A stretch of 64,000 bases of DNA. Source: Clytia hemisphaerica. Lineage: Eukaryota. Made by a program: the position numbers and the translations under genes. The notes beneath the pieces are model-generated. The model made no database searches and was not told the origin of the DNA. It saw only the letters and a list, made by a program, of their open reading frames with translations. The stretch lies in NCBI RefSeq assembly GCF_902728285.1, contig NW_027104315.1, positions 238,032 through 302,031 on the forward strand, written 5' to 3'. How positions within the stretch are numbered: the first letter of the stretch is position 1; each line of letters opens with the position of its first letter. Of the stretch, positions 1 to 62,637 are shown in pieces.

Positions 1-971
1 TTATAAAAAGTGTAGGCTAAAAAATAGAAGAAAGGGCTCGGACTGAAGGGTTAACAGCATACACTCTTTTTTTATAAGAACAATCAGGCTTAGACTAAAC
101 AATAGGTCTATTATCTAGACATAGAAAAATAAGAAGCTTAGGCTTAACTCAAATTCATGGTTCTTATAGAAAGAGCGTAACGAGGGTTCATAACAAGAAA
201 ATGTCAAGTGAGGAACGTTGCATATTTGTAGTCTGTTTTAAAAATTACACTGAATGTACCGTCAGATTAAGCACAAATGTATATTATATATATATATATG
301 TATATAATGTTATTAAAAATGTATACAAAAGAAGTAAGCTAAGTTTGTTAAAATCAAGGAAACCAGCACAAATGGGATAGGCCAAATCAGCAGGTTTTAT
401 TGGAATCATAAAGGCAAAGGTCAAACAATTGCATTGTGACCGTTTTGGTCATTTTTTGGCAATGACTTCTTTAGAAGAGATGCTTTATTCTATCGACCTC
501 TTTTGTCAAGAATAAATGTCACCTGAATAATCGGACAATAGTTTTTTTCTATCGACTTCTTTTATTTGTCGAGAATGTAAATCATCTGCTCAAGCAGACA
601 AGGTTATATTTTTGCCGTGTACCTCTTAGGATCAAGCACTGTTGTTTACTCACACTGTGGTGATCAATGCTTCTTAAGCACCAGCACTGTATGGCCGTTT
701 AGGAGAAAAAAAAAAGAAAAAGATATTCATCCAAAAAATTCAAAAATCCTAGGAAAAGATCCCTGAAAGTCACTTTTAAAGCTGTCTGACTGTCTGAAAA
801 TAACAGAAGAAAGTTCCAATTCCGTCGAGTTGACAAACCAAAACAGTCCAGAACATGCACCACATGGTGAGTTAAATTTCCTCAATAAAAATCGCACATA
901 TTAATCCTGACTAAAGGTTTTACACTATAGACAAGAGTTCCGCCTCACTGCACAAATCGATCGGGAGAGGC

Positions 972-2333
972 GTGGGCGTTATTAAAGGGGCAATCCGCCA
1001 CCACATAACACGGTTTGTTATTGTTTTTCTAAAACTCGATTACTTTTAAGGTGCACAGGGGAATTTCCAGTTGAGGCGGAGTGATCGAGATAAAAATATC
1101 ACGTGACTTTTGACGGGAAAAAAATCAAAACAAACTTATGTGGTGGAAGGCACAAAAAATTATCTTCCTTTCTCAGAAAAAAGCTATCGTTTTGTTTCAG
1201 CTGAAGGTAACCTGATAACAGCTGTTCATAATTTTCTTACGTGCACAGTAAACCTCTGAAGGCACTTGAAAATTATACATCTGAGGAAAATAGTCCTCCC
1301 GCAGAAAATTTCACAACAAGAATCTTGTTGTGCGCCAGAAAGTCAAAAACTGATACGGCGCCCTATTCATAAACACAATCACGCAACTTTGTTGTCATCC
1401 CCAGTCCTTATAGACGAACGCAGTCCTTACGATTTCGAGATTGCATTTTCGTCAGATCGTATGTTTTCACCCAGTGGGTTCGACTGACATTTCCTGCATT
1501 AAAAGCCAAGATGCAATATGTTTATTAAATACACGCTCACAGTATCTCTAGTCAGAGAAAACAATCACACATTCAATCAAAAGTGTCTTTAGTCAGGAAA
1601 ACAACCAAAACACGTACCAAAACAATCACACAAGTTTCAAAAGTTTAGAAAATCCACAAAACCTCTGACTCTGACCTCATGAATGTAAGAACCAAGAATT
1701 AAAGACTTTGTTTTGGGGTCACTCGGTAAACAAATCTCATATAACTTGTTCCAGAGACATTGTCCATATAAGAGTTTGTATTTCAAAGCAAAAATATTTC
1801 TCGTACTGCCCATTTTTCTCATCAATTCTTCAACTTGAACCAGTTTCACATCTCAATAGAATGTTAATACCATTTTGCCAATCATTTAATGTCCAAAGTT
1901 ATGGGGATGTAGCGTTTTCTTCATGTCAAGCAAATGTCTCTGAAATCTTTAAGTTGGTTGGTTTGGTATTCGGAAGAGGTAATCCATGGATATCTTTGTA
2001 ATCAATGATGAAAAACTCTTGAAATTACTGATGATTACGTTGAAGTGTTAGCCTCACATTTCATGTAATTATTGGTCGCCAATTAGATGAAAATTGTATG
2101 TTTTTTGTTCGTCAGAAAAGAGTTATAACTTTTAAAAAGCCAAGAGTGAATTTTCGTCCATCTTGTATTTTGATCTGAATTATTCGTGTCTTGATTACTC
2201 AAAAACATGCGCGTAACATCAAGGTAAATCCGTGCGATTTTGTCTGAATAACTAAGACAAATGAAAACAAAAACAAACTTCGCAATGTGGTGGCGGATTG
2301 CCGCCCCCTTTAAGGGCGCAAAAAGGGCGTAAG
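972..2333. mobile_element. Candidate TIR-bounded nonautonomous DNA transposon of about 1.36 kb. It has terminal inverted repeats of about 30 bp, GCGTTATTAAAGGGGCAATCCGCCACCACAT at 975-1009 and the reverse complement of 2284-2333.
   Basis: The inverted repeat pair was read directly. No long ORF lies inside. Termini and TSD are not resolved. Confidence 0.3.
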
Positions 2334-6806: not shown

Positions 6807-7639
6807 CTCGTTAAAAACGTTGACTGATTGTTCACAAGAAGCTGTAGAGACATCCCACCGCGATATTTCTCCTTTGACTTCACCAACAAACAAAGTTTTG
6901 CCGTCTACCGAAATACAAACAGCGGAGCCGCGGACCTTCAGTTCATGAATCACCTCTGCACTGCTTTGGTCCATGATCGAGGTCGTATATTGGTCCACTA
7001 TGGCAACTAGGTCTCCTTTCGTGTTTGTTGCAGCGCAGTTGATACCTCCTTGAGCGTATTTAACAAGCATCGGATCACCTTCCGTAGGGACGTTGACCCA
7101 ATATAAGGGGTACGCTTCCCCCTTAATCGAGGGCTCCATCCCTAGAGCCAAGGTATCTTTAGTGACGTATGAGGTGGGAGCTTGTGTTACAGCCATGTTA
7201 AGACAGAAATTCGGGAATTCCCGAATATAGGATGTGTAGAGCTGAACAAACGAGGCCCATTGCTTGAGAGCATCTATGTCATCTGTATTTGTGAGTGTTT
7301 CCAAGGCGAGAGTGTATTCGTCACTAAGGCTTTGATGCTGTTTAGCAACAATGCGTTGTTTAACAAAGTGGATATTCCTCAAACTCGTTTTCAAGCTTTC
7401 CAAAGGTGAATCTTGATTTTGGTGAGCTTTGAGTTGATGGTAGACCAGTTGTTCTAGGGAGTGTTCGAAATATGCTGGTGGTTCCTCTTGAGGTGTTTCA
7501 CAGCATTGCTTGGTGATAATGTCTTCGAAAAAATCTCTCATCCACGCGTGTGTTTCTTGTTCGAATGATTCCGTCATAAATTTTTGACGCACGGCATATT
7601 TGAGCTGGTCGTGGAAGAATCGAAGATAACCACCTCCGC
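6807..7639 (-). CDS. Paralog A exon 10 (833 nt). Helical region, then the start of the WD-like sensor. The divergent region relative to paralog B begins around 7100.
   Basis: Acceptor is tgttttgtAG|GCGGAGG and donor is AACGAG|GTAATT. Phase is 1 to 0. Confidence 0.65.
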
Positions 7640-8175
7640 CTACAAAACATTACGTTAATAATTTTAGATCTGAATTGTGAGTCCCTGTTTAAATAACTTT
7701 GAATATTTCTTTTACTGTGTGTCCCCTAAATCAGCTCCTTAACGATATTTCAAAAATGAAGAGCCTTAGTTCCAGTTAATTCCTGAACAGCGCAGTCGGC
7801 CTTATAGGGAGGGGTCTGGTAAAAAATGGCCAGGGTTGCTACAGCTTTACCAAGTTGAAAATTCCAGACTTTTAGTCTCAAAAGCCATGTTTTCCGGATT
7901 TACCTAAAAAAGTCAAACATTTTCCAAATATTTTGGTAAAATACTCAATATTATCCAGACATTTCATCCATTAGGAAGGTTTTCAGTTTTTTGTTAACGG
8001 TCATTTGAAAGAACACATTGATGAATACAACGGAATGAGAAATATCAGAATGAACAAGTAAAGATTTGGTTACGGGCTAAGCGAGGGAATTTCATTAGGT
8101 ATAAGCTATCAAAGGGCAATCTTACAATTATTCTGTTAAAAAAATAATTACGGGAAAATATCCAAAAAACCTCAC

Positions 8176-8763
8176 CAGCAGCTAAAAAATGAGCAATCGA
8201 ATCGTAGATTCTTGGAAAATTTGCATCGTACAGAAACTCTCCATCGCCTTTTTCTCTTTGTTCTTTAAAATGCAGAAGGTCGTTGATTTGGTTTTCCAGT
8301 AAGCCATCTTTTGAAACACACAATAATCCTGCAACGTCTTCTACAAATAGTTTACCGTAATCGTTAGACCATTCGTCTAAAAGGAAGCTAAACAGATCTG
8401 TAATGGTGTTTGGTAGACTCTCAATATACTGGGTCACTTTCTCGAAAATTCCAAACTTCCTCAGAGCCTCACATGCAGCGATTAAGTACAATGGACTTTG
8501 ACTTTTGGACAACAATTTCTCCATTTGATTTCCCAGAATTGGATCCTGATTTTCAGTTAGCTTCTTATTAAACCTTTCAAGTGTTGCTCGGACCATTTCT
8601 TGCAAATCCGCATGACTCATGTTTTCGATAGGAAGGCGTTGTGCATCTGGTGAAACATTGCAAGCGTTCTGAAATGTCCCATTTTCTTGGTTTAATGTTG
8701 AGATCATGAATTTGAGATTTTTTGGAGCTGCTTTTGGTGGAAGCCACCACATATCCCAAGCAC
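8176..8763 (-). CDS. Paralog A exon 9. Post-NACHT helical region of 195 codons.
   Basis: Acceptor is ttatttcAG|GTGCTTGG and donor is GCTG|GTGAGG. Length is 588 nt. It is one codon shorter than paralog B, with PKAAPKN here versus PTKKAPKN there. Confidence 0.65.
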
Positions 8764-9476
8764 CTGAAATAATAAACAAATAACGCATAAAAGGAATTGT
8801 GACACTTTTAAAGCAGTCAGCATTTATAGTGTGGTCGTGTTACAAAAATACAGGCTGTTTGTAGGAAAAAAATATTACTGTCTCCAAAATTGCGAGGTTA
8901 TGTATTTGCACTTTTGAGAACAGCAGAGTGACTGAAGGAATTTGGAATAAGTATTGACCCGCAAATTCAAGGACGGTAAAAGTATGTCCTTCAGTCATTC
9001 AGGATCTAGACAACTAAGAAGCTAATAAATGTATTTGCCGAAAGGAAACACATATAAATAAGCTCACTAATGAATGACCTCTACAAAATTCAGAATACGG
9101 ACCTCCGCAATGTCTTCTGACATATATGTTTTTATGGTGTTATGTTGTTACAACTGAGGTGGTTGAATCTACGTGATTTTGTAATTATCTCTGACGTCAT
9201 TACAGTGCATAGTTCGGACCCCTTCTTTCTTAAAGGGGGATGACACCTTCCGAAAAATGAAGAGGAAGGAAGGGGGGATAATTTAAGAAGGGGGCTTATA
9301 TATTGTAGATTATTTTCAAGCACTGTTATGAAATTTGGTCTTCATGAGATGAAGTTTTCTCTTAGAATAGTTTGATTCAAAAAGAAGAAAGAAGTTTGCA
9401 GTGGTACATATCCTGACCATGAAAGACTTCATCTTTTTTCGAACCAAACTGAACGGTAATGGAATCTTAAACTTAC

Positions 9477-9677
9477 CAAGCCCACTGTGGAATTGATTGA
9501 CTGCATCAATAATGATAACAAATAATTTTTTTGGATATTGATTCGCACTTTCGATAAGAAATTCGTGATGTTGTTGTTTCAGCTCTGAAGCATTTCCAGT
9601 AAATTCTTTGGATAATTTCGTTTCACCCATATCTCGTCTGTATTTTCTCAAATTGATTTGAAGTCTGCGCATCATGC
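9477..9677 (-). CDS. Paralog A exon 8. NACHT Walker-B exon reading ...KKLFVIIIDAVNQFHSGLG.
   Basis: Acceptor is tttaacgcAG|GC and donor is CTTG|GTAAGT. Length is 201 nt. Confidence 0.65.
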
Positions 9678-10249
9678 CTGCGTTAAAATAAATACAATAA
9701 CAATAATTACAATAACACAACTCAATAAATATACTTTGAGACTAGAGTTTTGAAATTTGCTGACTGTTTTCGGCGCTACTCAAATACCTCAAGATCTAGC
9801 CATGAAAATCCATGGTATTCTCAAAAATGATGACGCCAACATAAAAATTTGCATTTCGAAGACGTATTGTCCATTTCCGAGGAACTTCATCGACCAAACA
9901 AGATAAATGACCGCATTTTGGAGATCTATCTTAAGCTCTAACAAATGGTACAACAAGTTCTTGTCAATGAGGAATTTAGAAAACTGACTTTCCAATGATC
10001 TTTTTCAAAAGGGTGTCGTTTTGGCCAAACGATTCTAACCCGCCTTCAATAGTTCAAAGAAAACTTTCTCCAGCTTTGCCAGCTTGGCAAAAACTGGTTT
10101 TGAAGCCTAGAGGAGCCTTATGTTCAGAAAATAAAAAATACCTTTATATACTGTTTGTCAGGGTCCACCAAGACCACCTCCGGACTAAATTTTAGGCGAA
10201 TATATAGTAGACCCATCATTATTTGGTTATTGACAAACTATAATCTCAC

Positions 10250-10524
10250 CTTCCAAAACATTGGAACCAGGACAAGTATCAACTGCATGGATAAACAAAA
10301 AGTTATTGTTTTCTTGAAATTCCTTCGAACATAAAACCGCAACTTTGGCCAACAATCCGGACTTTCCGCAACCCGGTTCACCATGCAGGATCATAGTATT
10401 TGCATTATTGCCACATTTTGTAGAACAGTGTTTAAAAGCCTTGTCAACAAGATCTGTTCGACCAACAAAAGTGGATGCTTTCAGTTTGACGGCGTTCTCG
10501 TGTTGAATTGATTCCATCGCATAC
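10250..10524 (-). CDS. Paralog A exon 7. NACHT P-loop exon with Walker A GEPGCGKSG.
   Basis: Acceptor is ctctttccttcaccAG|G, with a strong polypyrimidine tract. Donor is GAAG|GTGAGA. Length is 275 nt. The 49 N-terminal residues of ORF 10227..10673 are SINE-derived intron, not exon. Confidence 0.7.
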
Positions 10525-10552
10525 CTGGTGAAGGAAAGAGTAATAAGTAGTA

Positions 10553-10759
10553 CTGAGTAAGTCTGCGACCGCATGGTAGGGGAGGGCGCCACTCTTTCTC
10601 CTTGGATTGCTCCACTTACCCTTGATTCTTCCCTTAATTGCTGAGCATCAAGAAGAGAGGCATCGAGTACCATTTTGGGAATCTTTAGTATGACTCAGCT
10701 GGGGTTGAACCCACAACCTTGTGTACCGTAGCCGGATGCTCTACCACTGACTACGACAG
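10553..10759 (-). mobile_element. tRNA-derived SINE, antisense to the plus strand and in the sense orientation of the gene. It lies in intron 6 of paralog A with its 3' end about 30 nt upstream of the exon 7 acceptor. It is flanked by a 9-bp TSD TAAGTAGTA at 10544-10552 and 10760-10768, and carries about 45 bp of internal deletion relative to the other copies.
   Basis: Pol III A-box-like TAGTCAGTGGTAGAGC and B-box-like GGGTTCAACCCC are present. The direct repeat was read on both flanks. Confidence 0.6.
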
Positions 10760-11307
10760 CTAAGTAGTAAGAAGAGTGATGAGCATCTCTAGTGTAGAAT
10801 TCTTTGGGTTTCCCACGATAAACGGAGGTATGTCAATAAAATCTAGAGAGAGATCTAAACAGTATAATTTATGACTTGACGTTTTATGTGAGAGGTCGAA
10901 AGATCAAGAAAATGTTGGTAGTTTTTTAAATATATTTTTCAGAAATATTAGGGAATATTGACAACCGTTTAAAGTCAAACTTTGTCAAAAATGAGCCAAG
11001 AAAAGATATGCAGATGGAGGCTAGGTGAGGTGAATCCCAAAAGTAGTAATCGAAGATACTTGTTACAGCCTAGCTTTCGCAGTCCACGTAGTTTTCATAC
11101 AAATAACGATTTACGACAAGATTTAGAAAAAAGTGCCAGGCAAAAAACAAAACCAGTGCTAGATTTAAGGCATAACTTAAATCTTTCCTGGAAAAGGTGG
11201 AAGATTCTTCTCTTGCCCTCGGTTACATCTCATTGGACCTCGTGACTTGAGGTTGTTTTGTTCCCGGAACTCAAACTATTCAACGGACTTGAAATAAAAA
11301 TTCTTAC

Positions 11308-11514
11308 TGATCAACCTGAGTGGTATCAACGGATGAATAATTCGATAAAATCGCCTCCATTAAATCATCCTCGACTCGTTTTTCGAAATCCTCCAACTTT
11401 TTCACGTAACCAACTCCAAAACTCTTGGCGTTCTCTCGTTTGCAAGTGATTTTTGCATTGACGAATTCTGCGTTGTATTCAAACCATTTGATTTGAGGAT
11501 GATTTTGAATGAAC
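11308..11514 (-). CDS. Paralog A exon 6. Reads KFIQNHPQIKWFEYNAEFVNAKITCKRENAKSFGVGYVKKLEDFEKRVEDDLMEAILSNYSSVDTTQVD.
   Basis: Acceptor is tttttcAG|GTTCATTC and donor is GATCA|GTAAGA. Length is 207 nt. Confidence 0.6.
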
Positions 11515-25849: not shown

Positions 25850-26682
25850 TTCTTCCAAGATTTCACAAGCACTTTCCAGTCTACCTGTAGAAACATCATA
25901 TTTTGATACCGTTCCTCTGTCATCACCAATAAGTAAAGTTTTGCTGTCAGCTGTAAGAAGAACAACTGACGCTCGTCCATTTACCTGGTGGACTAACTCT
26001 CCACTTTTTTGGTCAAATACACAAACTCTTTCCCACGCCATAATGGCTACTAAACCACCTTTTGAGCTCGTAACAGCACAGTCAATACCCCCTAGAGCGT
26101 ATTTAGCAAGCATCCGGTCACATTCCTCAGGTATGTTGGACCAATATAAAGGGTACGCTTCCCCCTTAACTGAGGGCTCCATCCCTAGAGCCAAGGTATC
26201 TTTGGTGACGTATGAGGTTGGGGCTTGTGTTACAGCCATGTTAAGACAGAAATTCGGGAATTCCCGAATATAGGATGTGTAGAGCTGAACAAACGAGGCC
26301 CATTGCTTGAGAGCATCTATATCGTCAGTATTTGTGAGTGTTTCCAAGGCAAGTGCGTATTCGTCACTAAGGCTTTGATGCTGCTTGGCAACAATGCGTT
26401 CTTTAACAAAGTAGATATTCCTTAAACTCATTTTCAAGCTTTCCAAAGGCAAATCTTGATTTTGATGAGCTTTGAGTTGATGGTAGACCAGTTGTTCTAG
26501 GGCGTGCTCGAAATATGCTGGTGGTTCCTCTTGAGGTGTTTCACGGCATTGCTTAGAGACAATATCTTCGAAAAAGTCTCTCATCCACACGTGTGTTTCT
26601 TGTTCGAATAATTCCGTCATAAATTTTCGGCGCACGGTATATTTGAGCTGGACGTGGAAGAATCGAAGATAGCCACCACCAC
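25850..26682 (-). CDS. Paralog B exon 10 (833 nt). Helical region, then the start of the WD-like sensor. The near-identity with paralog A ends inside this exon.
   Basis: Acceptor is ctgtttttAG|GTGGTGG and donor is GAAGAA|GTAAGT. Phase is 1 to 0. Confidence 0.65.
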
Positions 26683-26913
26683 CTAAAAACAGTATGCCAT
26701 TAATTAGAGTCATCTATTTGTGTGTCAACTAGATCAGTTCATGTACGAGGTTTTCTAAAGTGAAGAACTCTAACTCACTAGGTATTAGGTATTAGCTAGG
26801 GAGTATGAAAGTGCTATATTTCAACAATGTTTATCTTAGATTGCGCAACTCTTAATGCTGTTACCATTATGTTGTTAAAAAATAATTACGGGAAAATATC
26901 TAGAAAACCTCAC

Positions 26914-27504
26914 CAGCAGCTAAAAAATGAGCAATCGAATCGTAGATTCTTGGAAAATTTGCATCGTACAGAAACTCCCCATCGCCTTTTTCTCTTTGTT
27001 CTTTAAAATGCAGAAGGTCGTTGATTTGGTTTTCCAGTAAGCCATCTTTTGAAGCACACAATAATCCTGCTACGTCCTCAACAAATAGTTTACCATACTT
27101 TTCAGACCATTCGTCTAAAAGGAAGCTAAACAGGTCTGTAATGGTGTTTGGTAGACTCTCAATATACTGGGTCACTTTTTCGAAAATTCCAAACTTTCTC
27201 AACGCCTCACATGCAGCGATTAAGTACAATGGACTTTGACTTTTGGACAACAATTTCTCCATTTGATTTCCCAGAATCGGATCCTCATTTTCGGTAAGCT
27301 TCTTATTAAACCTTTCAAGTGTTGCTCGGACCATTTCTTGCAAATCTTCATGGCTCATGTTTTCGATGGGAAGTCGTTGTGCATCTGGTGAAACATGACA
27401 AGCGTTCTGAAATGTCCCATTTTCTTGGTTTAATGTTGAGATCATGAATTTGAGATTTTTGGGAGCTTTTTTTGTTGGCGGAAGCCACCACATATCCCAA
27501 GCAC
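26914..27504 (-). CDS. Paralog B exon 9. Post-NACHT helical region reading AWDMWWLPPTKKAPKNLKF...HFLAAG.
   Basis: Acceptor is ttttttAG|GTGCTTGG and donor is GCTG|GTGAGG. Length is 591 nt with phase 1 to 1. An in-frame stop lies immediately 3' of the donor in this copy, which supports an intron here. Confidence 0.65.
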
Positions 27505-28390
27505 CTAAAAAAGTAAATAGATAACGCTTAAAGGAAATTGTGATACTTTTAAAGCAGTCAGCATCTAGACTAATATTACTGTCTCCAAAATTGCGAGGTT
27601 TTGTATTCTCACTTTTGAGAACACTGAACGGAGTGACTGAAGCGATTTGGAATAACCCGCAGTATTGACCCGCAAATTTGAGGACGGTAAAAGTATGTCC
27701 TCAGTCATTTAGGATCTAGACAACTAAGAAGCTATAAATGTATCCGTCCAAAGGAAAGACATATAAACAAGCTCACTAATGAATGACCAACAAAGTTCAG
27801 AATATGGACTACCGCAATGTCTTCTGATAAATATGCTATTATGGTGTTATGTTGTTATAACCAGAGCTGGTTGATCCTACGTAATTTTGTAATTATCTTT
27901 GAAGTCATTACAGTGCATAGTTCGGACCCCCTGCTTTCTTAAAGGGGGATGACAACTTCCGAAAAATGAAGAAGAGGGATAAGAATTTTTCATGAAAAGG
28001 GGGGGGTAGCAAGGAAGGGGGATACATGTTTTTTTCTTTTATAAGCATAACGTTTATAAGCATATGCAGGCTCAGTTTTTGGTACCCAAACAATGGCTCT
28101 ATTGTTTGAGAACAATAGAATGCTAAGCATAATGCGAGCCTGATGTAGGGGCACATGCTTATAAATGGACACTTGCTTATAAAAAAAAACATGTAGTTTA
28201 AGAAGGGGGGCTTACTTATATATTGTAGATTATTTTTAAGGACTGTTATGAAATTTGGTCTTCCTGAAAGAAAGTTTTCTGTTAGGGGGGGGGGGGTCAG
28301 ACCCCTTTCTGCACTATTCAGTGGTGCATATCCTGACCATGAAAAACTTCATTTCTTTTCGAACCAAACTGAACAGTAATGGAAACCTAC

Positions 28391-28591
28391 CAAGCCCACT
28401 GTGGAATTGATTGACAGCATCAATAATGATCACAAATAATTTTTTTGGATATTGATATGCACTTTCGATGAGAAATTCGTGATGTTGTTGTTTCAGCTCT
28501 GAAGCATTTCCAGTAAATTCTTTGGATAGTTTCGTTTCACCCATATCTCGTCTGTATTTTCTCAGATTAATTTGAAGCCTTCGCATCATGC
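28391..28591 (-). CDS. Paralog B exon 8. NACHT Walker-B exon reading MMRRLQINLRKYRRDMGETKLSKEFTGNASELKQQHHEFLIESAYQYPKKLFVIIIDAVNQFHSGLG.
   Basis: Acceptor is atcaacgcAG|GC and donor is CTTG|GTAGGT. Length is 201 nt with phase 1 to 1. LFVIIIDAVNQ is a hhhhD Walker B-like motif. Confidence 0.65.
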
Positions 28592-29042
28592 CTGCGTTGA
28601 TATAAAGAGTAAACAATGACGAAATTCAATATTAATAAACTTTAAGATTCCAAGTCCAAGAAAAGGTGAAAATCTTTTACAAGCGTTAGCAAAAATGATT
28701 ATAGAGGTAACATTATAGTTATGCATACTGCATTCAAAAACGTCCGTACGTTCGACTCAACATTAAGCCTTTAAATTTAGACCCTTACAATGCAGAGTAA
28801 ATTTAGCCAAAGTTGAGTTTGCGCGAAAAATAGACCCTTACGGTGCATTTTCTTGAAAGTTTTTTACTATTTTAAGGCAAAATATGGTCAGATATTCCAA
28901 ATCTTACACCCTTAAAGTGCAATTTCCCATCTTTGCTCATTTTGACAGCTGAAGGCATTCTAAACTAAGAGTTTTGGACAAATACATTGCAGATTCTTCA
29001 TGTGCCCTCGGTACGGTGGTTGTTGACTGACTATAATCTCAC

Positions 29043-29317
29043 CTTCCAAAACATTGGAACCAGGACAAGTATCAACTGCATGGATAAACAAAAAGTTATT
29101 GTTTTCTTGAAATTCCTTCAAACATAAAACTGCAACTTTGGCCAACAATCCGGACTTTCCGCAACCCGGTTCCCCATGCAGGATCATAGTATTTGCATTA
29201 TTGCCACATTTTGCAGAACAGTGTTTAAAAGCCTTGTCAACAAGATCTGTTCGACCAACAAAATTTGACGCTTTCAGTTTGACGGCGTTCTCGTGTTGAA
29301 TTGATTCCATCGCATAC
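29043..29317 (-). CDS. Paralog B exon 7. NACHT P-loop exon reading YAMESIQHENAVKLKASNFVGRTDLVDKAFKHCSAKCGNNANTMILHGEPGCGKSGLLAKVAVLCLKEFQENNNFLFIHAVDTCPGSNVLEG. Walker A is GEPGCGKSG.
   Basis: Acceptor is ttcttacaccAG|G and donor is GAAG|GTGAGA. Length is 275 nt with phase 2 to 1. Walker A GxxGxGKS was read directly. Confidence 0.7.
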
Positions 29318-29345
29318 CTGGTGTAAGAAAAAGTAATAAGTAGTA

Positions 29346-29601
29346 CTGAGTTAAGTCTGCGACCGCAGTCGGAGGCAACCTGAAGGCTCCTCTTTCGATA
29401 GCTATCTACCCGATGGTAGGGGAGGGCGCCACTCTTTCTCACTGGATTTCTCCACTTTCCCTTGATCCTTCTCTTAATTGCTGAGCATCAAGCAGAGAGG
29501 CATCGAGTACCATTTTGGGAATCTTTGGTATGACCCAGCATGGGGTTGAGCCCACAACCTTGTGCACCGTGGCTGGATGATCTACCACTGACTACGGCCG
29601 C
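29346..29601 (-). mobile_element. Orthologous tRNA-derived SINE copy in intron 6 of paralog B. It has the same 9-bp TSD TAAGTAGTA at 29337-29345 and 29602-29610, so the insertion predates the duplication or homogenization.
   Basis: Same flanks and position as the paralog A copy. The full-length body includes the gggtagatagctatcgaaagaggagcc segment. Confidence 0.6.
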
Positions 29602-30076
29602 TAAGTAGTACTGAGTAATGAGCATCTCTAATGAAGAAATTTTTGGGTATTCCCACGATAAACGGACGTATGTCAATAAAATCTAGAGAAAGATCTAAAC
29701 AGTATACTTTATGACTTGCCGTTTTATGTGAGAGGTCGAAAGATCAAGGAAATGTCGGTAGTTTTTGAAATATATTTTTCAAAAATATCAAGAAAAGATA
29801 TCACATTGACAGCCGATTATCAGTCAAATTTTATCAAAAATGCGTCAAGAAATAAGATATTTGAAGATACTTGTTACACTCTTACTCGCTCAGTCCGCGT
29901 TGTTTTCGCACAGACGCCGTTTTTGAAAAGTGTGCCACTCAAAAATAAAGCCAGCGCTAGATTTAAGGCATAACTTTTTCTTTCCTGGAAAAGGTGGAAG
30001 ATTCTTCTCTTGTCTTCGGTAACATCTCATTGGACTTCGTGACTTGAGGTTGTTTTGTTTGTCTATTCAACAGACT

Positions 30077-31578
30077 TTAAATTAGCGAGCACCTCACTAA
30101 AAACCGAGATTTTTCATCTCGTTTCTTAGTGAGTTGTTTCTTAAGCCTGCCGTCCACTAGTGCTATTTTTGGTTATCGTGAAATGTAATCGCGAAATGTT
30201 ATCTCATGTCTGAACTTATAATTAGTTACATGTCCACTATTAAATAGGATATTTGCGAAATAGATATCATTTCTTTCCAACTTTGTAGAAGGCTTTTTCA
30301 GCGGTATCTGGAAAATTAAAATAAGTATTCATTAAGATCCAACACCATCTCAAGAGTAGGATAGATACAGTATTTGGTTAAATCAATCAAGGGTCTCAGC
30401 AGACAACACTTTCCATTGAGTGTTTCGAAGTGGTTTTTAACAACAACGTATCCGAGTAAAACTATTTGCAATATCCGCGTAAAGTAATAGAAATTGGATG
30501 ATAAAAATCGGACAAATCTGTGGATTGTATTTTTACCTTCTTCCATTCCAAGAAATTTTTCGATTTGCTCCAACAATTCTTCTTGAGTGGTTTATTTTTG
30601 TGGTCGGGATGCGACTTATCATAGAAGCATGTATAATTCCTGACGGCTTCAAATAGTTTTTCATCTTTTTTCTAAATTATTTTTGCCTCTATGGCATGTT
30701 GATAGAAAATACAATCACACTACACGTTTTTTTTATTAGAACACCTAAAATTTGGCTGAGCCTGGATGTGCTTATTTTTTAGCAATTTTCAGCCTAAAAT
30801 GTTCTTAAATGCGTTCTTAATTTTTCAGACTACTCTAAATCGGCAATATCATACAAAATAAAGAGCACTTAAAAATTGGTAAAATTTGGACAACTGCTTG
30901 AAAAGAGGAAAGAATTGTAGTTTCTTGTCATTTTTTTTCCAAATTGAGGATGGGCATGTTCCTACGATGTTCTTAATTTTTCAACGAAAGTAAGCCTCAA
31001 TGTTCTTATAAAATGGGTTCTAAAAAAACGTGTACACACCAAAATTCAAAAATCCTCTCATGTGATGAAGATGTTTTTATCGCAAAATGATTTTCTCTAA
31101 TTTTTTCTTCGATCACATGTAATTCGATCTTGTGCAAACATTGAAATAAAAGAAATGCAGGTGGTTCTATTGTTAAAAACTATCGCGAAACAAAGGTTTC
31201 GCGATTGGATAAAATCTTGAGTGAAAACTTTTTCACTCCCTATCGTGAAATAAAATAACGCGATAGACAGGCTTATTTCGCGATAGACAGTGTCTTTGAT
31301 AGATGATCATTTCGCGATAGCTAAAAAAAGCCTAGTGGACGGCAGGCTTTACTGAGTTTCACTTTGACGATTTTTGAAAAATAGAAGCCTTTCAAGTGCT
31401 TTGACGCAAATTCGATTTTTTCGCTACTGCAGGAGCTTCAAAAGTTAAAAGTGACGTCAAAAAATTGAATGTTTAGAGCCCGAAAACCCGGGCTCAAAAC
31501 ATTCGAAAAGTCGCAAAGTGGAAAAGACGTTAATTGCGTAGAGAAAACGCGGGTGACGTCTAGTATAGGCTAACTTTA
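30077..31578. mobile_element. Insertion of about 1.5 kb present only in intron 6 of paralog B. Paralog A is contiguous at 11250-11262. It contains a TIR element at about 30150-31350 with 19-bp TIRs, AAGCCTGCCGTCCACTAG and its reverse complement, and subterminal ATCGCGAAAT and ATTTCGCGAT repeats.
   Basis: Paralog alignment breaks exactly at these points. TIRs were read directly. No long ORF is present, so it is nonautonomous. Confidence 0.5.
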
Positions 31579-31593
31579 AATGAAAATTCTTAC

Positions 31594-31800
31594 TTATCAA
31601 CCTGAGTGGTATCAACGGATGAATAATTCGATAAAATTGCCTCCATTAAATCTTCCTCAACTCGTTTTTCAAATTCCTCCAACTTCTTCACATAACCAAC
31701 TCCAAAACTTTTGGCGTTCTCTCGTTTGCAAGTGATTTTTGCATTGACGAATTCGGCGTTATATTCAAACCATTTGATTTGAGGATGGTTTTGAATAAAC
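31594..31800 (-). CDS. Paralog B exon 6. Linker region reading ...FIQNHPQIKWFEYNAEFVNAKITCKRENAKSFGVGYVKKLEEFEKRVEEDLMEAILSNYSSVDTTQVD.
   Basis: Acceptor is tttttcAG|GTTTATTC and donor is GATAA|GTAAGA. Length is 207 nt with phase 2 to 2. The apparent in-frame TAA is bypassed because the donor GT precedes it. Confidence 0.6.
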
Positions 31801-32279
31801 CTGAAAAATAGGAGACAGAAAAAGTTGAAGAAATGAAGGCTAAAAATAGTTCGAAACTTCGAAACCTTTTTGGAATTGTTCAAAACACTTGGCCATTTTG
31901 GGCGAAATGAGCTAGGATTGTTTCTTTTTACAAACTATTTAATTGATCATTGCAGTGAAAAGAAAGTTATTAGGCTTTAATGTAGTTTTTCAATTCAAGG
32001 TACCCCAGAGTTTCATCTTTGGTGGGCTATAAATCCAAACAAAGAGGTTTTCGAAGACCTCGTAGCTACCTATTGAAAAAGCATGAAATCCTGAAGAAAA
32101 AAATTAGTTTTGGGTAGCACTTTCGTTTTTGAAATTCTTAATTATTTATTTCAAAAAGTTACAAAGCTCTTGGAATGAAAGCGTTTATCAATAAGAAAAT
32201 ATTATTTTCAAAATAGTTTGAGAAGCAATAATAAGTACACATTAGTGAATATTTTTAAGTAGATAAACCCTATCCCTAC

Positions 32280-32421
32280 TTGTTCAAAGCATCTCTATCC
32301 TTTTCGTAAGCTGAAGCATTTTCATTCACGGTGTATTGAAATTTCAATTGCAGATCTTCCATCTCTTTTTCCACATACTCAAATTCAAAAATCCATCGAA
32401 ATTCTTCAGGAAATTTTGTAC
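32280..32421 (-). CDS. Paralog B exon 5. Linker region reading GTKFPEEFRWIFEFEYVEKEMEDLQLKFQY...
   Basis: Acceptor is ttttaAG|GTACAAAA and donor is AACAA|GTAGGG. Length is 142 nt with phase 1 to 2. Confidence 0.55.
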
Positions 32422-32865
32422 CTTAAAAGAAAAATTTATTTGAAAGTTATCAGCCCCACAGATTTTATGCAAGAGATGAACGTAGTTGTTTGATGACCTT
32501 GCAAAAGGTTTTTCCAGGTTTTCAGACTCGAATGTCAATTTTTTGACGTCACTTGAAATTACTTGCAGTATATATAGAGAAAAATCGATTTACTTATCTT
32601 TTTAAAGACTCAAAATCATTTTCGTTGAGTTTAAATATACATACAATATACAATGGTAAAATAATTCTGTTTTGAAGTGCCCCCACTGACAAGAATAGTG
32701 CAATACAGAAAGCGAAGTGTGGCTAAGAGGGACACTAGGACCCGAGCGTAAGTAGAAATCGAATTTGAACACTTGAAAGGCTTTTCAAAAAATAATCAAA
32801 ACGTAAAATATTGCAATGTTTTTTTGCAGCTCAGTACTTTTATTAAATGAACTAACATATTTTAC

Positions 32866-33026
32866 CTTTCGGCATATTTGGTATATCCAACATATTTCTT
32901 TTGTAGAAGAAAACAGTAGGTGACTCGGATTTGATTTTGCCAGATTGCGAAGCTTGGATGGCTTCTAAAGATGTGATGCTGACCTTTTTACCGTAACTGT
33001 CAAATCTTTTGATCCAGTCGTATAAT
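32866..33026 (-). CDS. Paralog B exon 4. Linker region homologous to paralog A LYNWIKRFDSYGKKVSITSLEAIQASQ...
   Basis: Acceptor is tcgtcAG|ATTATAC and donor is AAAG|GTAAAA. Length is 161 nt with phase 2 to 1. Near-identical to paralog A exon 4. Confidence 0.6.
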
Positions 33027-33363
33027 CTGACGAAAAGATAGACTTTAAAATATCAATGGAAAAGACTCACATAAAGTCGGAAGTCATATTATCTAAGAGG
33101 GGGGAATTTGGACGCTTCGAAATCTCATTTTTAATAACTATTTCTCTATGACATAAGGATATTTCAAACTTTTGGCGTGAGGTCAAGGAGGGCAAACGGA
33201 TCCTTTCTCATAGAGTCCTTATGTGAGAGCGTGGCTATAAATCTATAAAACCCGAAATTTCTAAACGGGACACCAAAGTAACTGTGAAACCTTTTAAAGA
33301 TTATGTACACAAGGAAACTACCAATATGTGCATAAAAGATCGAAAAAATTAATTTCCACCAAC

Positions 33364-33617
33364 TTTGGCTGCTCGAATCCATTATCTGGTAAATAGTTAT
33401 CCTGCACCCAACCATATCGATCTGTTCGAAGTCCTAAAAACCATGGCATGTACACAATATCGTCCCGACATTTATCGATCTGATTCAAACAAGTTTTTTG
33501 GATTTCTTCGCAATTTTTGCTCTCATCAGCTAAAACACCCCATCGAAGATCAACTGGTATTACTCGGATGAATTTTGAGGCCAATTTTCGATTGATGCTT
33601 GGAATAACACGTTGTAC
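33364..33617 (-). CDS. Paralog B exon 3. Continues DUF4062, reading ...CLNQIDKCRDDIVYMPWFLGLRTDRYGWV...
   Basis: Acceptor is tttAG|GTACAACG. Donor is CCAAA|GTTGGT, which is weak (GTTAGT in paralog A). Phase is 0 to 2 and length is 254 nt. Confidence 0.55.
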
Positions 33618-34127
33618 CTAAATAAATGGGGGAAATGCTAGACTAGATTTTAAGATAATATAGTGTATGGTTCTCCTAAAATTAGATCCCCTGATAAGGG
33701 ACCTCCTCTGTGTGGCAATTCCCCTCTTTAATATAAGCACTCGCGGTTCTAAGAGCTTTCAAAGAGACCTTTAGCTTTAAAAGTCTCTGAGCGCAATCCG
33801 TTAATGAAGAACCTATAAGGTCTGATTCTATTCTAGCCCCAAAGGGTTTCATTTCCAACAATTAGGAAAATTAGAATAATTCAGTTGGCTCAGAACGTTC
33901 TTTCAACGTTCATCTAATATTCACATTATTCATATAATGTTCACATTATTCATATAACGTTACATGAACCTTGAAACAACATTGTGCGCTATTTGGGAAG
34001 AAAACCAAAATATCACCATCGGCATCCCTATAGAGATTTAAGCTAGTTGCGGTAGAAAAACCATGGTTTCTATTCTCCACTAAAGCCATGTAATCTGGCA
34101 CTTTTCAAGACAAATGAAATCACATAC

Positions 34128-34286
34128 CAAGATATCCCTTTCCGAATGTGTATCAATAAAAGTGGATGAAATGAAAAGTCTGATTTCAATCCAAGTTCCA
34201 ACTTCGCGTTGTTTTGCTTTCTCTTTCATTGCTTCGTGGTGAATCAAATTTTGAGATAACCATTCGTCCAATGAAATATTTTCTAC
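34128..34286 (-). CDS. Paralog B exon 2. Start of DUF4062, reading ...GTWIEIRLFISSTFIDTHSERDIL.
   Basis: Acceptor is ttttttAG|GTAGAA and donor is TTG|GTATGT. Phase is 0 to 0 and length is 159 nt. The motif matches the DUF4062 hallmark vFiSStf.D...ER..L. Confidence 0.65.
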
Positions 34287-34324
34287 CTAAAAAAATCATC
34301 AAAGAGTTGTGTGTACAGTGGAAC

Positions 34325-34765
34325 CTCCAATTGGCGGACACCATCGGGGAGTAGGGTTAGTGTCCGCTAATTAGAAGCGCCTGCCTTTAAAAACTTTTCA
34401 TTTATGTGTACTATTAAGAAATCAAGTATGTAAAATATCGGTTCGAAGAGACGCTGGGACATGAAAGAACAAGGGAGTAATTATTCAAATGCAACAATTT
34501 AGTTTTTATGAATCATAGCAGTCTTGAGGCCCCTGTAATTTATCATTTTTACGACGTAAGCAAATTCAAACGTCTATTATAGCAATTCGTTCAATGAAAC
34601 TTTGAAGTGTTTGAGAAATAAATAGTTTGGATAAATCAATCCTGTCTAATTATTTATGTCTGTGATGAATTTCACCGGCGATGTCCGCTAATTAAAAAGG
34701 AAAAATAAAGTTAGGGTTTTGGCCATTTCGTGTGAAAAGCTTTGTCCGCTAATTGGAAGGAAACT
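34325..34765. mobile_element. MITE of about 440 bp, specific to intron 1 of paralog B. It has terminal inverted CCAATTGGCGGACA and TGTCCGCTAATTGG and four copies of GTCCGCTAATT(A/G)GAAG.
   Basis: Inverted termini and internal repeats were read directly. Intron 1 of paralog A is about 400 bp shorter. Confidence 0.4.
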
Positions 34766-35282
34766 CTTTTATGAGGATTTGAGTTTTACTGTATACTTTA
34801 TTGATTTCCGGCATCGAAACCACTTCCATTTTATCTTATGTATCTGTTACTGTGATCCCCCTTCCTGCTTTTTATGTTACTAACCATTCTGTTCATTCTC
34901 GCGTGTAAATTTCTTCCTTCCTATTTCTAACCTTCGTTAAACCAACTGCATTTTGCTAATTTTGAAAATGGACCACCGCCGTACTAACTGCATGAACCCC
35001 CTGCTTCATCTACCAAACTTTCGATGATTGGGCAAAGACTTTCCTAACTGAAAGTGACGCCCCCAAAATCACATAACATATGATCTACCAAACTTTCGAT
35101 GATTGCTAGTCAGCAAAAATAAAAACAAAGAAATTTAAATTGATGATCCAGTCGTACCACCATAAATAGTTTATTGATATTTTAAAAAAAATTTTGATTT
35201 ACGTTTGACCTAAAAATCAACTCATCAACTCGGCTTAAAAACAACAACACAAAACAGCAGTATAAAAAATGAATTGATTTAC

Positions 35283-35453
35283 TGAAACTGGTGGTGCTTC
35301 TTCATTTACTACCGAAGGTGCTGGCAGTTCAGATGGTTTTTCGAATTGATTATTGTTTGATGGTTCAGTGTCTTGTACGGTAGGAGAAGGGTTTCTTGCA
35401 GCTTGAGATTGTGGGCTTGGTGGTTTGTTCTTCTTAGAGACAATCGATCCCAT
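35283..35453 (-). CDS. Paralog B exon 1 (phase 0 to 0). Translates MGSIVSKKNKPPSPQSQAARNPSPTVQDTEPSNNNQFEKPSELPAPSVVNEEAPPVS. The MGxxxS start followed by KK is an N-myristoylation consensus, and the remainder is a Pro/Ser-rich low-complexity N-terminus.
   Basis: ATG is the reverse complement of 35451-35453. Donor is GTAAAT immediately after codon TCA. Homologous to paralog A exon 1. The in-frame TTG at 35477 used by the ORF track is not an ATG. Confidence 0.6.
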
Positions 35454-54999: not shown

Positions 55000-55320
<321 letters not shown>

Positions 55321-56477: not shown

Positions 56478-57353
<876 letters not shown>

Positions 57354-59097
57354 ATTATTTATTTATTTTCTTCCAATTTTATTTTCGACTTATGTCTTCT
57401 TATGGTTCGAATTATGCAATTCTTTGTAAAAATTCCGTTATGTACATAAATACAATTTAACATACCAAAAAAATTAAACTTGTGTTATTCATTTCCCTTT
57501 CAAGTGTGAAAACTTAAGTATGCTCTGCCTTACTACACGTCTTTTTTATAAGAACATCCAAAGATTTTCAAACCTTCAGGTGGTTTTAACTTTCAAGCCT
57601 AAGAATGTTCATAACATTTTCGTATTTTCACCAGTATTTTTGTCCATATTCCTTTATCAGGTGTTTTAGAGTCAGCAAAGCCTTAAAATGTTCTTAACTT
57701 GTCCTTAACATTTTGGTCATCGATGCCTTATGTTCTTATATAGTTTGTTCTTATATTAATAAAAAACTTATCAATATTCATTTCTGAGTATTTATTGCTT
57801 TACCGTCTCAGTTAAAATAACTTAAAACTTTTCATTCAATATGTTCCTTGTTCGGAATGTCAGCTTTTGTTTTGTTTTTTGAATCGACATTTAATCAGTG
57901 TTCTTAATTTCCGAAAAATGTTGAGCTAAATAATTTCTGGTGTCTTTTGTTCAGGGTGTTACTTTAAACTTTATTGAGAAAGCGTGCAAGGCAATAAATT
58001 TATCCTTAGAAAATCCCGGGTTGGGTACTTAGGCAAAAATGGGTGCCGGGAATGTGCGAACCATGAGGGTCTATTTTTACACCCTCCAAAGTCTCTAAAC
58101 AGGGGCATAAAAACCATTATAAGCAATCAAGGTTCTTTAAGGCTTCCAAAATTACCAAAATCGACACCCTCATAGTGTCATAAATTTTTGAAATTTTGAC
58201 AAGAATTGGAAAACTTTGGCTGAAATTTTGGAAAAATAGTTTCTGTAAGGGTGGAACATGGTGGCAAAAACGTCGAAAAATGGGCAAATTTTTTAAATTC
58301 AGTCTCTCTCTCTCTATCAGTCGATTTTTGAACTTTGGTTTCTTCAACCTAGTACCCTTAACCCCGGGCTTAGAATAAACAGCCTCTATATATTATTGTA
58401 TACTCTGTTACTTCGTCTTAAGAGGGTGATTTGTTAGTTATGGTGCTTTCAGATTCCAAATATTTGGCTTTTCCAGTTAAAGTTCTTTTTTAGTACGTGA
58501 TTTCTTCTCAGTTGTATCCTATAGATTTCCAGATGAAAATTCCTGATCTCTTGAAATTCCTTGCCTTCATGAAATTCCTGGCCTTCATGCACCTTCTTCC
58601 CCTAAAGAATTTCGACCTCCTTAATAGAAAGTGGAGTACGGGCTGTAACAGATGTAAAAAATCCTGCATAACTAAAAATAAACAAAAAGAATGACAAATT
58701 TCATAAAGAACGACAAATTTTGCTGACCACAACCCCGACCGTAAGTGACTGTAAAACCCCTACGGATTCATTTTTCTTTGTTTATCACGAGAAATAACTA
58801 CACGTGGTTTAAAAGAACGACAAATTACGCATGCGAGTTACAATGGCAAGATTGAGAGAACCTCACTGTTAACCCGTATTACTTCGAATAAATACCCCTC
58901 CTTTAGGGAAAAATTTTCAATGAACGCCCCCCCCCCACCTCAAATAGACGCCCCCTTCGAATTTTAAAGCTGGCCTAGGAGGGGCGTTTATTTGAAACAG
59001 ACAGCAATAAGGAAGTAATACATAAAGAAAAACTTAGATATACAACAATAATTGTATTCTTTTTGTATTCGAACTGGTTTTTGACCCATTTTTACAT

Positions 59098-59515: not shown

Positions 59516-61548
59516 TTGACATATTCCCACTCAAATGTTGATGAAAAGGCAAAATAAGGTTAATGTTAACAAAGTTACTGACCTCGTTTATAAATTATTC
59601 AATAAACGCCCCCTTCTTCTAAACCACACCCCTTTCTCATAGATCCAGTGGAATTTTTTCAGCCAGTGGACCAAAACTCGAATGGGATTGATATTTCCGT
59701 TTTGTTATTCCTGGGGTTTGAATTCCAGTGTTTTCAAGCCAGAAAAATCAGTTGGAATGGAAAAAATAATACAAGAATTTGCGGTGAGGATTGGCTTGTC
59801 TGAGTAATTTCAGCGGAGACGAAAAATTAGGGTAAAACTTTCCACCGAGGACGATATTTTTGCCCCCGCAGGAGCGCAGCGACGAGGAGGCACTCATAGT
59901 TTCACGCATAGATATTGGACTGGAATCTCGAAATTTTGTTGTTTTTTTGTTTTGTCGCGCAAGCATCCCCGTAGTTAGTCTCTTCCGTAAATGTTCGGTT
60001 TTTAGTAGTATGCGTATTTTCATATTACGTTATATGCTTTTACCATTATTACGTATTACAAATTATTAGTTTTGATTTAGCTTTGAAAAGCTGAAGCGAG
60101 TGTTATAAATGCAAATTATTTATGACAGTGTATGATATAACACGAATTACAATATTACTTGTGCAAATCAAAACAAACAAAATGGTAGACTAGTAAACCA
60201 CGTCGTTGTATTTCGCTGCAGATTAAACTTTCAATGGGATCTATTTTTTTATATGTTTTCTGAATACAACCCTGTCTTTCCAATCCACTCTCCCGCGGCA
60301 ATTTCTATTTTTTATAAGAACTCTTTATTATAAGCACTATTCCCGCGTTCCTGTGTCCAAGGAAAGACAGACGCTTGCTAGTCTAACAAAATGGCAGACT
60401 GGTTATGATGTTGAGCTGATTCATTGACTAGAAAAAATGTTTTGTATGTCAAATTTTGTTTCTTGTCTTTGAAACTGAATACTAAATACTGTAATTTAGT
60501 CAGAAGTTCATTTCAGCAATGATTTCAATTCTTTTTCTGGAATCTTTAAAGAAATTTGCTCAAGTTTTTTAATGTACGTACATTTGATATTTGATATTTT
60601 TTGTTCAAACTATAATTTATCTTTGTCTGTTATTATATTAATAACTAGCTTTATTCTTTATTGTTTATAGAGCTTCTTGAGCTTTAAATACCATAATATG
60701 GTCGTAACTCGAGAAAGTCCTTCTTAACTTAGTAAAACAAGATACCAGCAAAGTTCAAAAATGTTGAATGTATGCATATGGCCATATGTAAAGTTGAATC
60801 CAAAAGTGGTTGAATGAATGTTGAATGTCAATCAATGTAAACAAACTTTTTCTTTTGGATTTAGCTCACTTAGAGTGTATTCACTGTTTTAACATTCGTT
60901 TAACTTTACATGCGCATATTCAACTTTTTCTAAAATAACCTATATGCTCCAGTAGTTTGGTGAAATAGCTCCAATTCTGGCTTTCCAAGTTAAAAGGGAC
61001 TTTCCCGAAGGCATTTAACGGTGGTTAGACTAGATACACAGACAGTCATACGGAAACACAATAAAGTGAAAGTATATAGCTATAAACTCAAAAAGTCTAG
61101 CTTCCTGGAGGCACGTCTCTTCATTGTCTGCGCTGCGATCATCTTAATGGCTTTGATCCTTTCAGCTTGGAGAAAAGATTGCATCACATCATGAAAAAGT
61201 ACTATGCACTTGAAAAAAAAACTAAAGCGCATTTCAACTTTTCTCGACTGTAAGTTCGAATAGATCACAATGGCATTCGTTTATTTTTCTTTTGACCAAC
61301 AACATAGAAGATTTTGCTTGCGAAGTGCAATCACAGCGTCCACAAGAGGAGCCCGGGCCTTAACTAGGATTGGTTTCTATTTCACCCAATTTAAGATGGC
61401 GCAGAACTTTTTGATAAATTTTATACGTAGAATTTTCTTGACTATTGTTTATTAGGCAAAGTAGCAATAGAGAAGTGTTGAAATATAGGAGCCAATGAAA
61501 AAAGCAAGCTATTTCAGGCTATTTCTGATTGGTTGCCTTGTTGATTTA

Positions 61549-61731
61549 TAGACCTTTTTTAAAGAGGCAGCCATGTTGAATAATTATGTACTCCAGCATA
61601 AAAACAGTGATACAGCCATGCATAATTACTGTGTTATGCATATTTTAAAAATTATGCATGGCTGTATCATTGTTTTTATGCTGGAGTACATAATTATTCA
61701 AAATGGCTGCCTCTTGTTAAAAAAAGGTCTA
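61549..61731. mobile_element. Near-perfect palindromic foldback element of about 183 bp with arms of about 85 bp. It reads TAGACCTTTTTTTAAAGAGGCAGCCATGTTGAATAATTATGTACTCCAGCATAAAAACAGTGATACAGCCATGCATAATTACTG ... reverse complement. Flanks are consistent with a TA target, as in Tc1/mariner Stowaway-like elements. A second partial copy lies at 46805-46957.
   Basis: Read directly. ORF 61573..61890 is a chance frame through it. Confidence 0.5.
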
Positions 61732-62637
61732 TTCACCGCTATATATTTTGCCTACAATCTAAGATGTCTGCGGGATTATCAGAAAAGGTCTATTGTGAAT
61801 AATAATCATGACATATATTGCTGTAAGAAAGAAACTGGGAGAAAAAAACAAACAGGAGATGTGAAAACCAGTAAACTAACGATACCATAATTTTTGAAAT
61901 AAATTGTTGAGAAGCTTTTCCTTGAATTTTATCAAATTATCAAGCTGCATAAATTCTTCAAGTATTGTGTTAATGGAATATAATTTTTTTTTCAAGCATA
62001 TGCCTCAATCAATTAATCAATCATTCAATAATTAAATCAATCAATTATTCCTGATTATTTTTAATGCTTTAATCTTTAAAGCATTAAAAGCTTTATAAGT
62101 GCATGACATGATCTTCTGCGTGGGCATTTAGTGAAAGCTATGACTAGTAATAACCTTTTCCGTGGGAAGGGGTCCCAGTGGGTCCATGAGAAGGGGTGTG
62201 AAATTACACTAGCCCAACAGTCCAAAAGAAAATTTGGCATCATCTTTTGGTCAAATAATCATTCGGATTAAATGCAAAATTTCAGGCAGAAAAACGATTT
62301 CGAGATTATGTGATATTTCAATACTCATCTGTCTCTGTGTAGAACCTAATAACAGGAAACCCTAACTAGAAAATCATCTTTTTGTCCTTCTTTTCTTCCA
62401 AGCAGAAGTCGAATGAATAAAATATTGATTTCATGAATATGAGGTTCAGGATATTCCATTTCTAAAGGCTAATCAAAGAAGAACTCAAGGGATTCTAATA
62501 TTTCCAAAGAGTTTGATTTGATTTGGAAATTGACTTTGATTTCATCCCAATTTGAAATTCAATCTCAAAAAAATTGCATTCAAAGATTATTCCTTCTGGA
62601 TTTTTTCAGCTGGAAACAATAAATTTTCCACGGATCT

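Follow-up and report, generated by a model that had tools for sequence, protein, structure and literature searches.

The 64-kb stretch of Clytia hemisphaerica DNA analysed here (64,000 nucleotides, hereafter the window) holds two tandem DUF4062-NACHT-WD40 (NWD-like) paralogs, A and B, and in intron 6 of both, at the identical site, lies a repeat close to the acceptor of the exon that encodes the Walker-A motif. We wondered what this repeat is, how it came to be in both genes, and whether it is a part of their products or merely lies beside them. As described below, it is an ordinary intronic SINE, of a family type already described in Clytia hemisphaerica. Very probably, a tRNA-headed SINE, likely ClySINE1, inserted in intron 6 before the tandem duplication and has been carried along in both paralogs as a passive passenger.

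Alignment showed that a retroposon of ~250 bp is present three times in the window, once in each paralog (copies A and B) and once elsewhere (copy C; Table 1). With copy C as query, blastn against the whole 64-kb window recovered B at 91.7% identity over 252 bp and A at 90.7% over 183 bp plus an 18-bp tail, and no copies beyond these three. The full-length element measures ~250–254 bp, shorter than the ~275 bp given in a first-pass annotation of the sequence. Copy A lacks 46 bp internally, between CTACCA and TGCGG, which alignments showed to be kept in B, C and two copies outside the window, confirming the deletion of about 45 bp that had been noticed before. The 9-bp target-site duplication (TSD) previously assigned to both paralogs, TAAGTAGTA, does flank A (10544-10552 and 10761-10769) as well as B (29337-29345 and 29602-29610), but the true TSD is 15 bp long, intact in B and decayed in A, where the A/B alignment shows the remainder of the 5' copy to be altered by AG>TTCT. 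The spans first given for the three copies all contain the SINE, but their ends had to be moved: that of A (10553-10759) takes in 6 nt of TSD, the element itself being 10559-10760; that of B (29346-29601) begins before the element proper, which starts at 29352; and C, correctly recognized as a third copy with a clean TSD, ends at 44032 rather than 44054 and has a TSD of 10 rather than 8 bp. Outside the window, the SINE was found on two marine metatranscriptome contigs, L023 and L026. The L023 copy (1838-2091, minus strand) is antisense to a carotenoid-oxygenase-like mRNA and lies in its 3' UTR; the L026 copy (92-306, plus strand) is 5'-truncated, sense to a THG1-like mRNA and placed in its 5' UTR. 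Both ORFs were named by eye.

Table 1. Positions in the window of the SINE copies, their target-site duplications and the neighbouring parts of paralog A, with the contigs that carry a related SINE family.
Feature	Position	Strand	Details
SINE copy A (202 bp)	10559..10760	-	head at 10760, tail at 10559; alignments and blastn
3' TSD copy of A	10544..10558	-	ACTCAGTACTACTTA on gene strand; matches both TSD copies of B
5' TSD remnant of A (9 bp)	10761..10769	-	TACTACTTA; A/B alignment
SINE copy B, full length (250 bp)	29352..29601	-	alignment and blastn
3' copy of 15-bp TSD of B	29337..29351	-	ACTCAGTACTACTTA on gene strand
5' copy of 15-bp TSD of B	29602..29616	-	ACTCAGTACTACTTA on gene strand
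SINE copy C (254 bp)	43779..44032	+	alignment, blastn, weak Rfam tRNA match
5' TSD of C (10 bp)	43769..43778	+	TATACATAGT
3' TSD of C (10 bp)	44033..44042	+	TATACATAGT; perfect
Exon 6, paralog A	11308..11515	-	donor CA/GTAAGA; in-frame join to exon 7 (CA+G, then TAT GCG ATG...)
Exon 7, paralog A	10250..10524	-	Walker-A (GEPGCGKS) NACHT exon; acceptor CACCAG/G, donor GGAAG/GTGAGA
Last 34 nt of intron 6, paralog A	10525..10558	-	TSD, then pyrimidine tract TTATTACTCTTTCCTTCACCAG
GTAAGT in SINE (AGG/GTAAGT), consensus-like 5' splice site	10614..10619	-	intact in A, C, L023 and L026
Related SINE family, contigs L051-L054			CAXXGD010000052.1, CAXXGD010000016.1, CAXXMW010000016.1; MAG labels Rhodospirillales, Arenicella

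The minus strand is the gene strand, as the ORFs with Pfam matches to NACHT and APAF1_C/WD40 are found there. Both paralog copies must be reverse-complemented to align with C, whose tRNA-like head lies on the plus strand. Read along the gene strand, copy A presents its head (10760), its tail (10559), the TSD, CACCAG and then the exon (10524). As the minus strand carries head, tail, acceptor and exon in succession, the SINE is sense-oriented in this gene; the former description as antisense applies only to the plus strand of the window. Between the SINE tail and the Walker-A exon, which starts after CACCAG at 10524 in A and at 29317 in B, we measured 34 nt of original intron in both paralogs, in agreement with the ~30 nt estimated before. 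The branch point likely falls within this segment, with CTTAT at -20 as a candidate site. Exon 7 matched Pfam NACHT at E=1.3e-5 and 25.6 bits, with the curated cutoff slightly higher at 26.7. Upstream of the SINE, six coding exons can be placed as minus-strand open segments conserved between the paralogs, which makes the earlier numbering as intron 6 plausible; in paralog A, they begin with an MGS... start near 15647, followed by DUF4062 exons (Pfam DUF4062, E=6.8e-8) and others. Intron 6 of A thus extends over 11307-10525 (783 nt). That of B contains a further ~1.5 kb (30059-31573) without counterpart in A, either inserted in B or deleted from A.

Two homologous loci from environmental assemblies (L048 and L049) have exons 73–82% identical to those of the window, with the same exon junction and the same boundaries, and this conservation confirms the predicted acceptor of exon 7. 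Their introns at the exon 6-7 junction are short (126 and 167 nt) and SINE-free, which shows the SINE to be a lineage-specific addition. A protein search returned metagenome homologues, all with ≤89% identity.

A SINE at such a position might be exonised, or might provide an alternative 5' end that gives rise to a NACHT-only isoform, although we regard either outcome as quite unlikely. Mammalian SINEs are under-represented <100 bp from exons, and 11.7% of those that do lie there occur in chimeric ESTs; the 34 nt measured here fall in the zone where such elements most often enter chimeric transcripts (PMC3088655). By the same mammalian analogy, exonisation or an alternative 5' end keeps a low prior. 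The SINE had also been described as open in the frame of the exon. ORF 10227-10673 indeed exists, and an open frame extends 57 codons upstream of exon 7 in both paralogs; however, owing to the 46-bp indel, the SINE is read in one frame in A and in another in B, and the in-frame ATG (10673) that opens the frame into the exon is present in A, with none in B. This is weak, chance openness, as the SINE frames hold just 1-4 stops each. The gene strand of the SINE also offers splice-like sites, AGG/GTAAGT and, 21 nt upstream of GTAAGT, an acceptor-like ...CTCTTCTTGATGCTCAG/ (CCTCTCTTCTTGATGCTCAG/), but the 21-nt pseudo-exon between them reads CA+C AAT TAA and thus runs into a stop. In B, the position of GTAAGT reads GGGAAAGT; the site is lost, so the signal is not conserved. 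The head of a SINE is a Pol III-type promoter and not an mRNA promoter, and therefore offers no ground for expecting an mRNA to start there. Finally, neither the SINE ORF nor the SINE-plus-exon ORF, searched against a 5.8-billion-protein collection, revealed a SINE-NACHT joint product: the SINE ORF found two products only, both from unrelated transcripts (L023 and L026), and the SINE-plus-exon ORF found genomic NACHT exons only.

A related scenario is that the sense SINE affects splicing of paralog A, where the site at 10619 (gone in B) and the acceptor-like GCTCAG/ near 10641 could together act as a decoy or give rise to a SINE-derived poison micro-exon or a retained-intron isoform. We hold this to be very unlikely; if true, the SINE would lead to different regulation of the two NWD-like paralogs.

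Copies A and B are embedded in a tandem segmental duplication (7000-15790 versus 26043-35609), with blocks 82–94% identical in a self-comparison of the window. At five sites, the state common to A and B differs from the one common to C and L023, being derived in A/B. Together with the common site and TSD, these substitutions support one insertion, before the gene duplication, that was inherited by both paralogs. Gene conversion between the paralogs or two insertions at a hotspot are very improbable alternatives. Exon 7 and its surroundings (~10235-10925) are 92–97% identical between paralogs compared with 85–89% in the 3' half of the gene, and could be a conversion tract; yet gene conversion would still leave a single insertion event, and both flanks are collinear, whereas two independent insertions are excluded by the identical junctions and TSD and by the derived substitutions common to A and B. 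The contrast in identity extends along the genes: the 5' half (DUF4062 to P-loop exons, 10230-14920 and its B counterpart) is 91–97% identical and the 3' half (helical/WD40 exons, 7000-9700 and its B counterpart) 85–89%, with homology almost gone downstream of ~7000. A gene-conversion tract or unequal constraint are possible reasons.

On the reading of a single insertion, the 46-bp deletion of A is supported as a post-duplication event. Between A and B, exon 7 is 96.9% identical, the SINE 92.3% and the upstream intron 86.2%. As the SINE is not better conserved than nearby exon-proximal non-coding sequence, nothing suggests that it is under constraint. The K2P distance is 0.084 between A and B and 0.033 between C and L023. 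Copy C carries 3 private substitutions versus 8 in B and has a perfect TSD, and is therefore younger than the A/B insertion, in support of the recent family activity claimed by the first-pass annotation. The simplest history is thus a single insertion, tandem duplication, drift in A and B, and a later independent insertion that became C.

To assign the element to a class, we applied the usual features of SINEs: a non-coding unit of ~80–600 bp, a tRNA head with A and B boxes, TSDs of variable length, dispersed and 5'-truncated copies, and a tail shared with a LINE. The element is short and non-coding, with a length of 250–254 bp and 1–4 stops per sense frame. Its TSDs vary from 15 bp (B) to 11 bp (L023) and 10 bp (C, and a copy on L051, a contig described below), and it is dispersed in multiple copies over four independent loci (A/B, C, L023 and L026), of which the one in L026 is 5'-truncated. 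The 3' end reads ...GACTGCGGTCGCAGACTT(ACTT)n, and the tails differ among copies (ACTTA, ACTTACT, ACTTACTAC and ACTTACTTACTAAG, all of ACTT/ACT type). An A box, TAGTnnAGTGG, and a B box, GGTTCAACCCC, are visible by eye at tRNA spacing. The Rfam tRNA model matched C with 22.9 bits (E=0.019; 43782-43851, plus strand) and L023 with 21.2 bits, both below the gathering score of 29, and did not match the older copies A and B; accordingly, no tRNA was called at the Rfam gathering threshold, nor with default ARAGORN. At a relaxed threshold of 80%, ARAGORN reported tRNA-Arg(ACG) on a five-copy consensus and on L023, and the Rfam alignment puts the same ACG at the anticodon, so that the parental tRNA may tentatively be named as Arg. 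The varying TSD length (10, 11 and 15 bp), the 5'-truncated copy, the A and B boxes and the weak match to the tRNA covariance model together support the earlier naming as a tRNA-SINE. As for the tail, blastn with copy C revealed no partner LINE sharing it in the window; such a partner may lie elsewhere in the genome.

That the repeat is not a SINE, being instead a MITE or host sequence repeated by chance, is hardly credible: SINE nt 2-12 (GCGACCGTAGT) have their complement, ACTGCGGTCGC, close to the 3' end and the tRNA score is under threshold, but, unlike the terminal inverted repeats at both ends and the fixed-length TSD of a MITE, the 3' complement is internal, with 9–11 nt of tail after it, and TSD length is not fixed (10, 11 and 15 bp), while a 5'-truncated copy is known, the tails differ in their repeats, the spacing of the A and B boxes is that of a tRNA, and a homologous body exists elsewhere behind a different tRNA-like head. 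In copy C, the complementary segments are the first ~11 nt of the SINE (43780-43790) and a conserved 3' block (44013-44023). GCGACCGTAGT is also the exact complement of the 3' block in the L051 family (ACTACGGTCGC). The predicted fold of the SINE closes as a panhandle; the whole-SINE fold (z = -1.47) is not better than those of shuffled sequences. As Alifold covariation could draw on two lineages only, we make no structural claim.

The homologous body behind a different head was found with a degenerate motif, taken from the block that follows the head, which was scanned against a collection of prokaryote genomes and matched in four places (L051-L054; Table 1). The matches lie in AT-rich contigs (33–38% GC) binned as bacterial MAGs, and belong to a SINE family that has another tRNA-like head and whose sequence from B box to (ACTT)n tail is 75–76% identical to the Clytia element. 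This family has seven copies in 32 kb, one of which (L051) has its own TSD of 10 bp. Such identity behind a different head argues that the SINE body is a conserved module common to more than one genome, as would be expected of a conserved-domain superfamily, and gives indirect support to a putative Meta-domain after the head. The contigs also carry (TG/TA)n microsatellites. With these, their 33–38% GC and seven SINEs in 32 kb, L051-L054 look eukaryotic, like host contamination of bacterial bins. An 18-mer scan of metagenome contigs gave 23 matches, 22 of them chance prokaryotic ones; a 26-mer scan of bacterial and archaeal genomes and of viral contigs gave nothing, and neither did the degenerate motif in viral contigs. 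Fragments of the SINE sequence matched unrelated primers only in the full-text literature.

The window contains several other repeats and genes. A 5'-truncated ORF (40153-41520, plus strand) looks, by eye, like the C-terminal end of a non-LTR retrotransposon (CxxC...HxxxxC end) with a (GATTCAA)n tail near 41530-41560; its part at 40153-40719 had no Pfam match, and was rejected as the partner LINE because its tail is unlike that of the SINE. This ORF is interrupted by a 518-bp MITE-like element (40839-41356) whose 36-bp terminal inverted repeats are perfect. Two more short elements are probably MITEs, one with 80-bp inverted repeats that are 90% identical (39276-39803) and one with 40-bp inverted repeats that are 97.5% identical (43108-43467). 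A unit of ~220 bp is repeated about three times in tandem at 36046-36729, and has an inverted relative (70–75% identical) at 57534-57755, just downstream of a two-exon actin gene (55018-55272 and 56478-57350, plus strand) whose 376-aa product is identical to XP_066923529.1 / A0A7M5XCT4 of Clytia hemisphaerica, which identifies the source species of the window. A 155-bp repeat occurs once at 46802-46957 and as a back-to-back inverted pair at 61548-61733, with 87–95% identity.

Overall, this suggests a model where LINE-driven target-primed reverse transcription would have inserted a SINE copy, oriented like the gene, into the 3'-terminal part of intron 6 in a DUF4062-NACHT-WD40 gene. With the insertion, 15 bp of target were duplicated and the final 34 intron nt stayed as they were, so that branch point, pyrimidine tract and AG would survive and splicing of the Walker-A exon would be unharmed. 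Tandem duplication then copied gene and SINE together, after which the SINE copies drifted to 92% identity: from A, 46 bp and a stretch of the 5' TSD were lost, and from B the internal GTAAGT. Copy C goes back to another insertion of this family, made later. We infer that the insertion was tolerated because the 34 acceptor-proximal nt, including CTTAT and the pyrimidine tract, are unchanged. That it was completely neutral is an assumption, since mammalian SINEs near acceptors are selected against (PMC3088655). The shared SINE provides a clean marker, its insertion being older than the tandem duplication of the NACHT/WD40 paralogs, and a relative clock can be read from the 46 bp deleted in A, the decay of its TSD and the 8% divergence; copy C shows that the family was still active after the duplication. 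Beyond annotation, the importance of the locus is little, although it offers a small example of a full-length sense SINE tolerated 34 nt from an acceptor.

In its position, the element resembles Alu and other SINEs of the intronic 'hazardous zone' (PMC3088655), as a full-length SINE lies <100 bp from a splice acceptor. Alu exonisation, however, proceeds mainly via antisense copies, whose poly-U tract makes the acceptor, whereas the Clytia copy is sense and has no A/T-rich tail. In its build, it is similar to the tRNA-derived HCD SINEs of bivalves, which likewise combine head, conserved domain and tail as modules, have TSDs of 6–18 bp and are often located in introns or near genes (PMC11481361); the bivalve SINEs belong to another phylum, and differ from the Clytia SINE in that the latter was found without a partner LINE in the window. 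Likened by description, the element is most likely the published MetaSINE family ClySINE1. Nishihara et al. 2016 described ClySINE1 from Clytia hemisphaerica, the host species here as well, as a MetaSINE in which a 66-bp conserved domain comes straight after the tRNA head and the 3' tail is common to a cuttlefish SINE (PMC4824008). Unlike the Thr-like head reported there on the basis of RepeatMasker, the head here shows an ACG (Arg) anticodon loop, by relaxed ARAGORN and the Rfam alignment. In common with ClySINE1 (PMC4824008), it comes from the same species and has a tRNA-like head directly before a central block that is conserved; in both, the 3' part recurs in a SINE of another genome.
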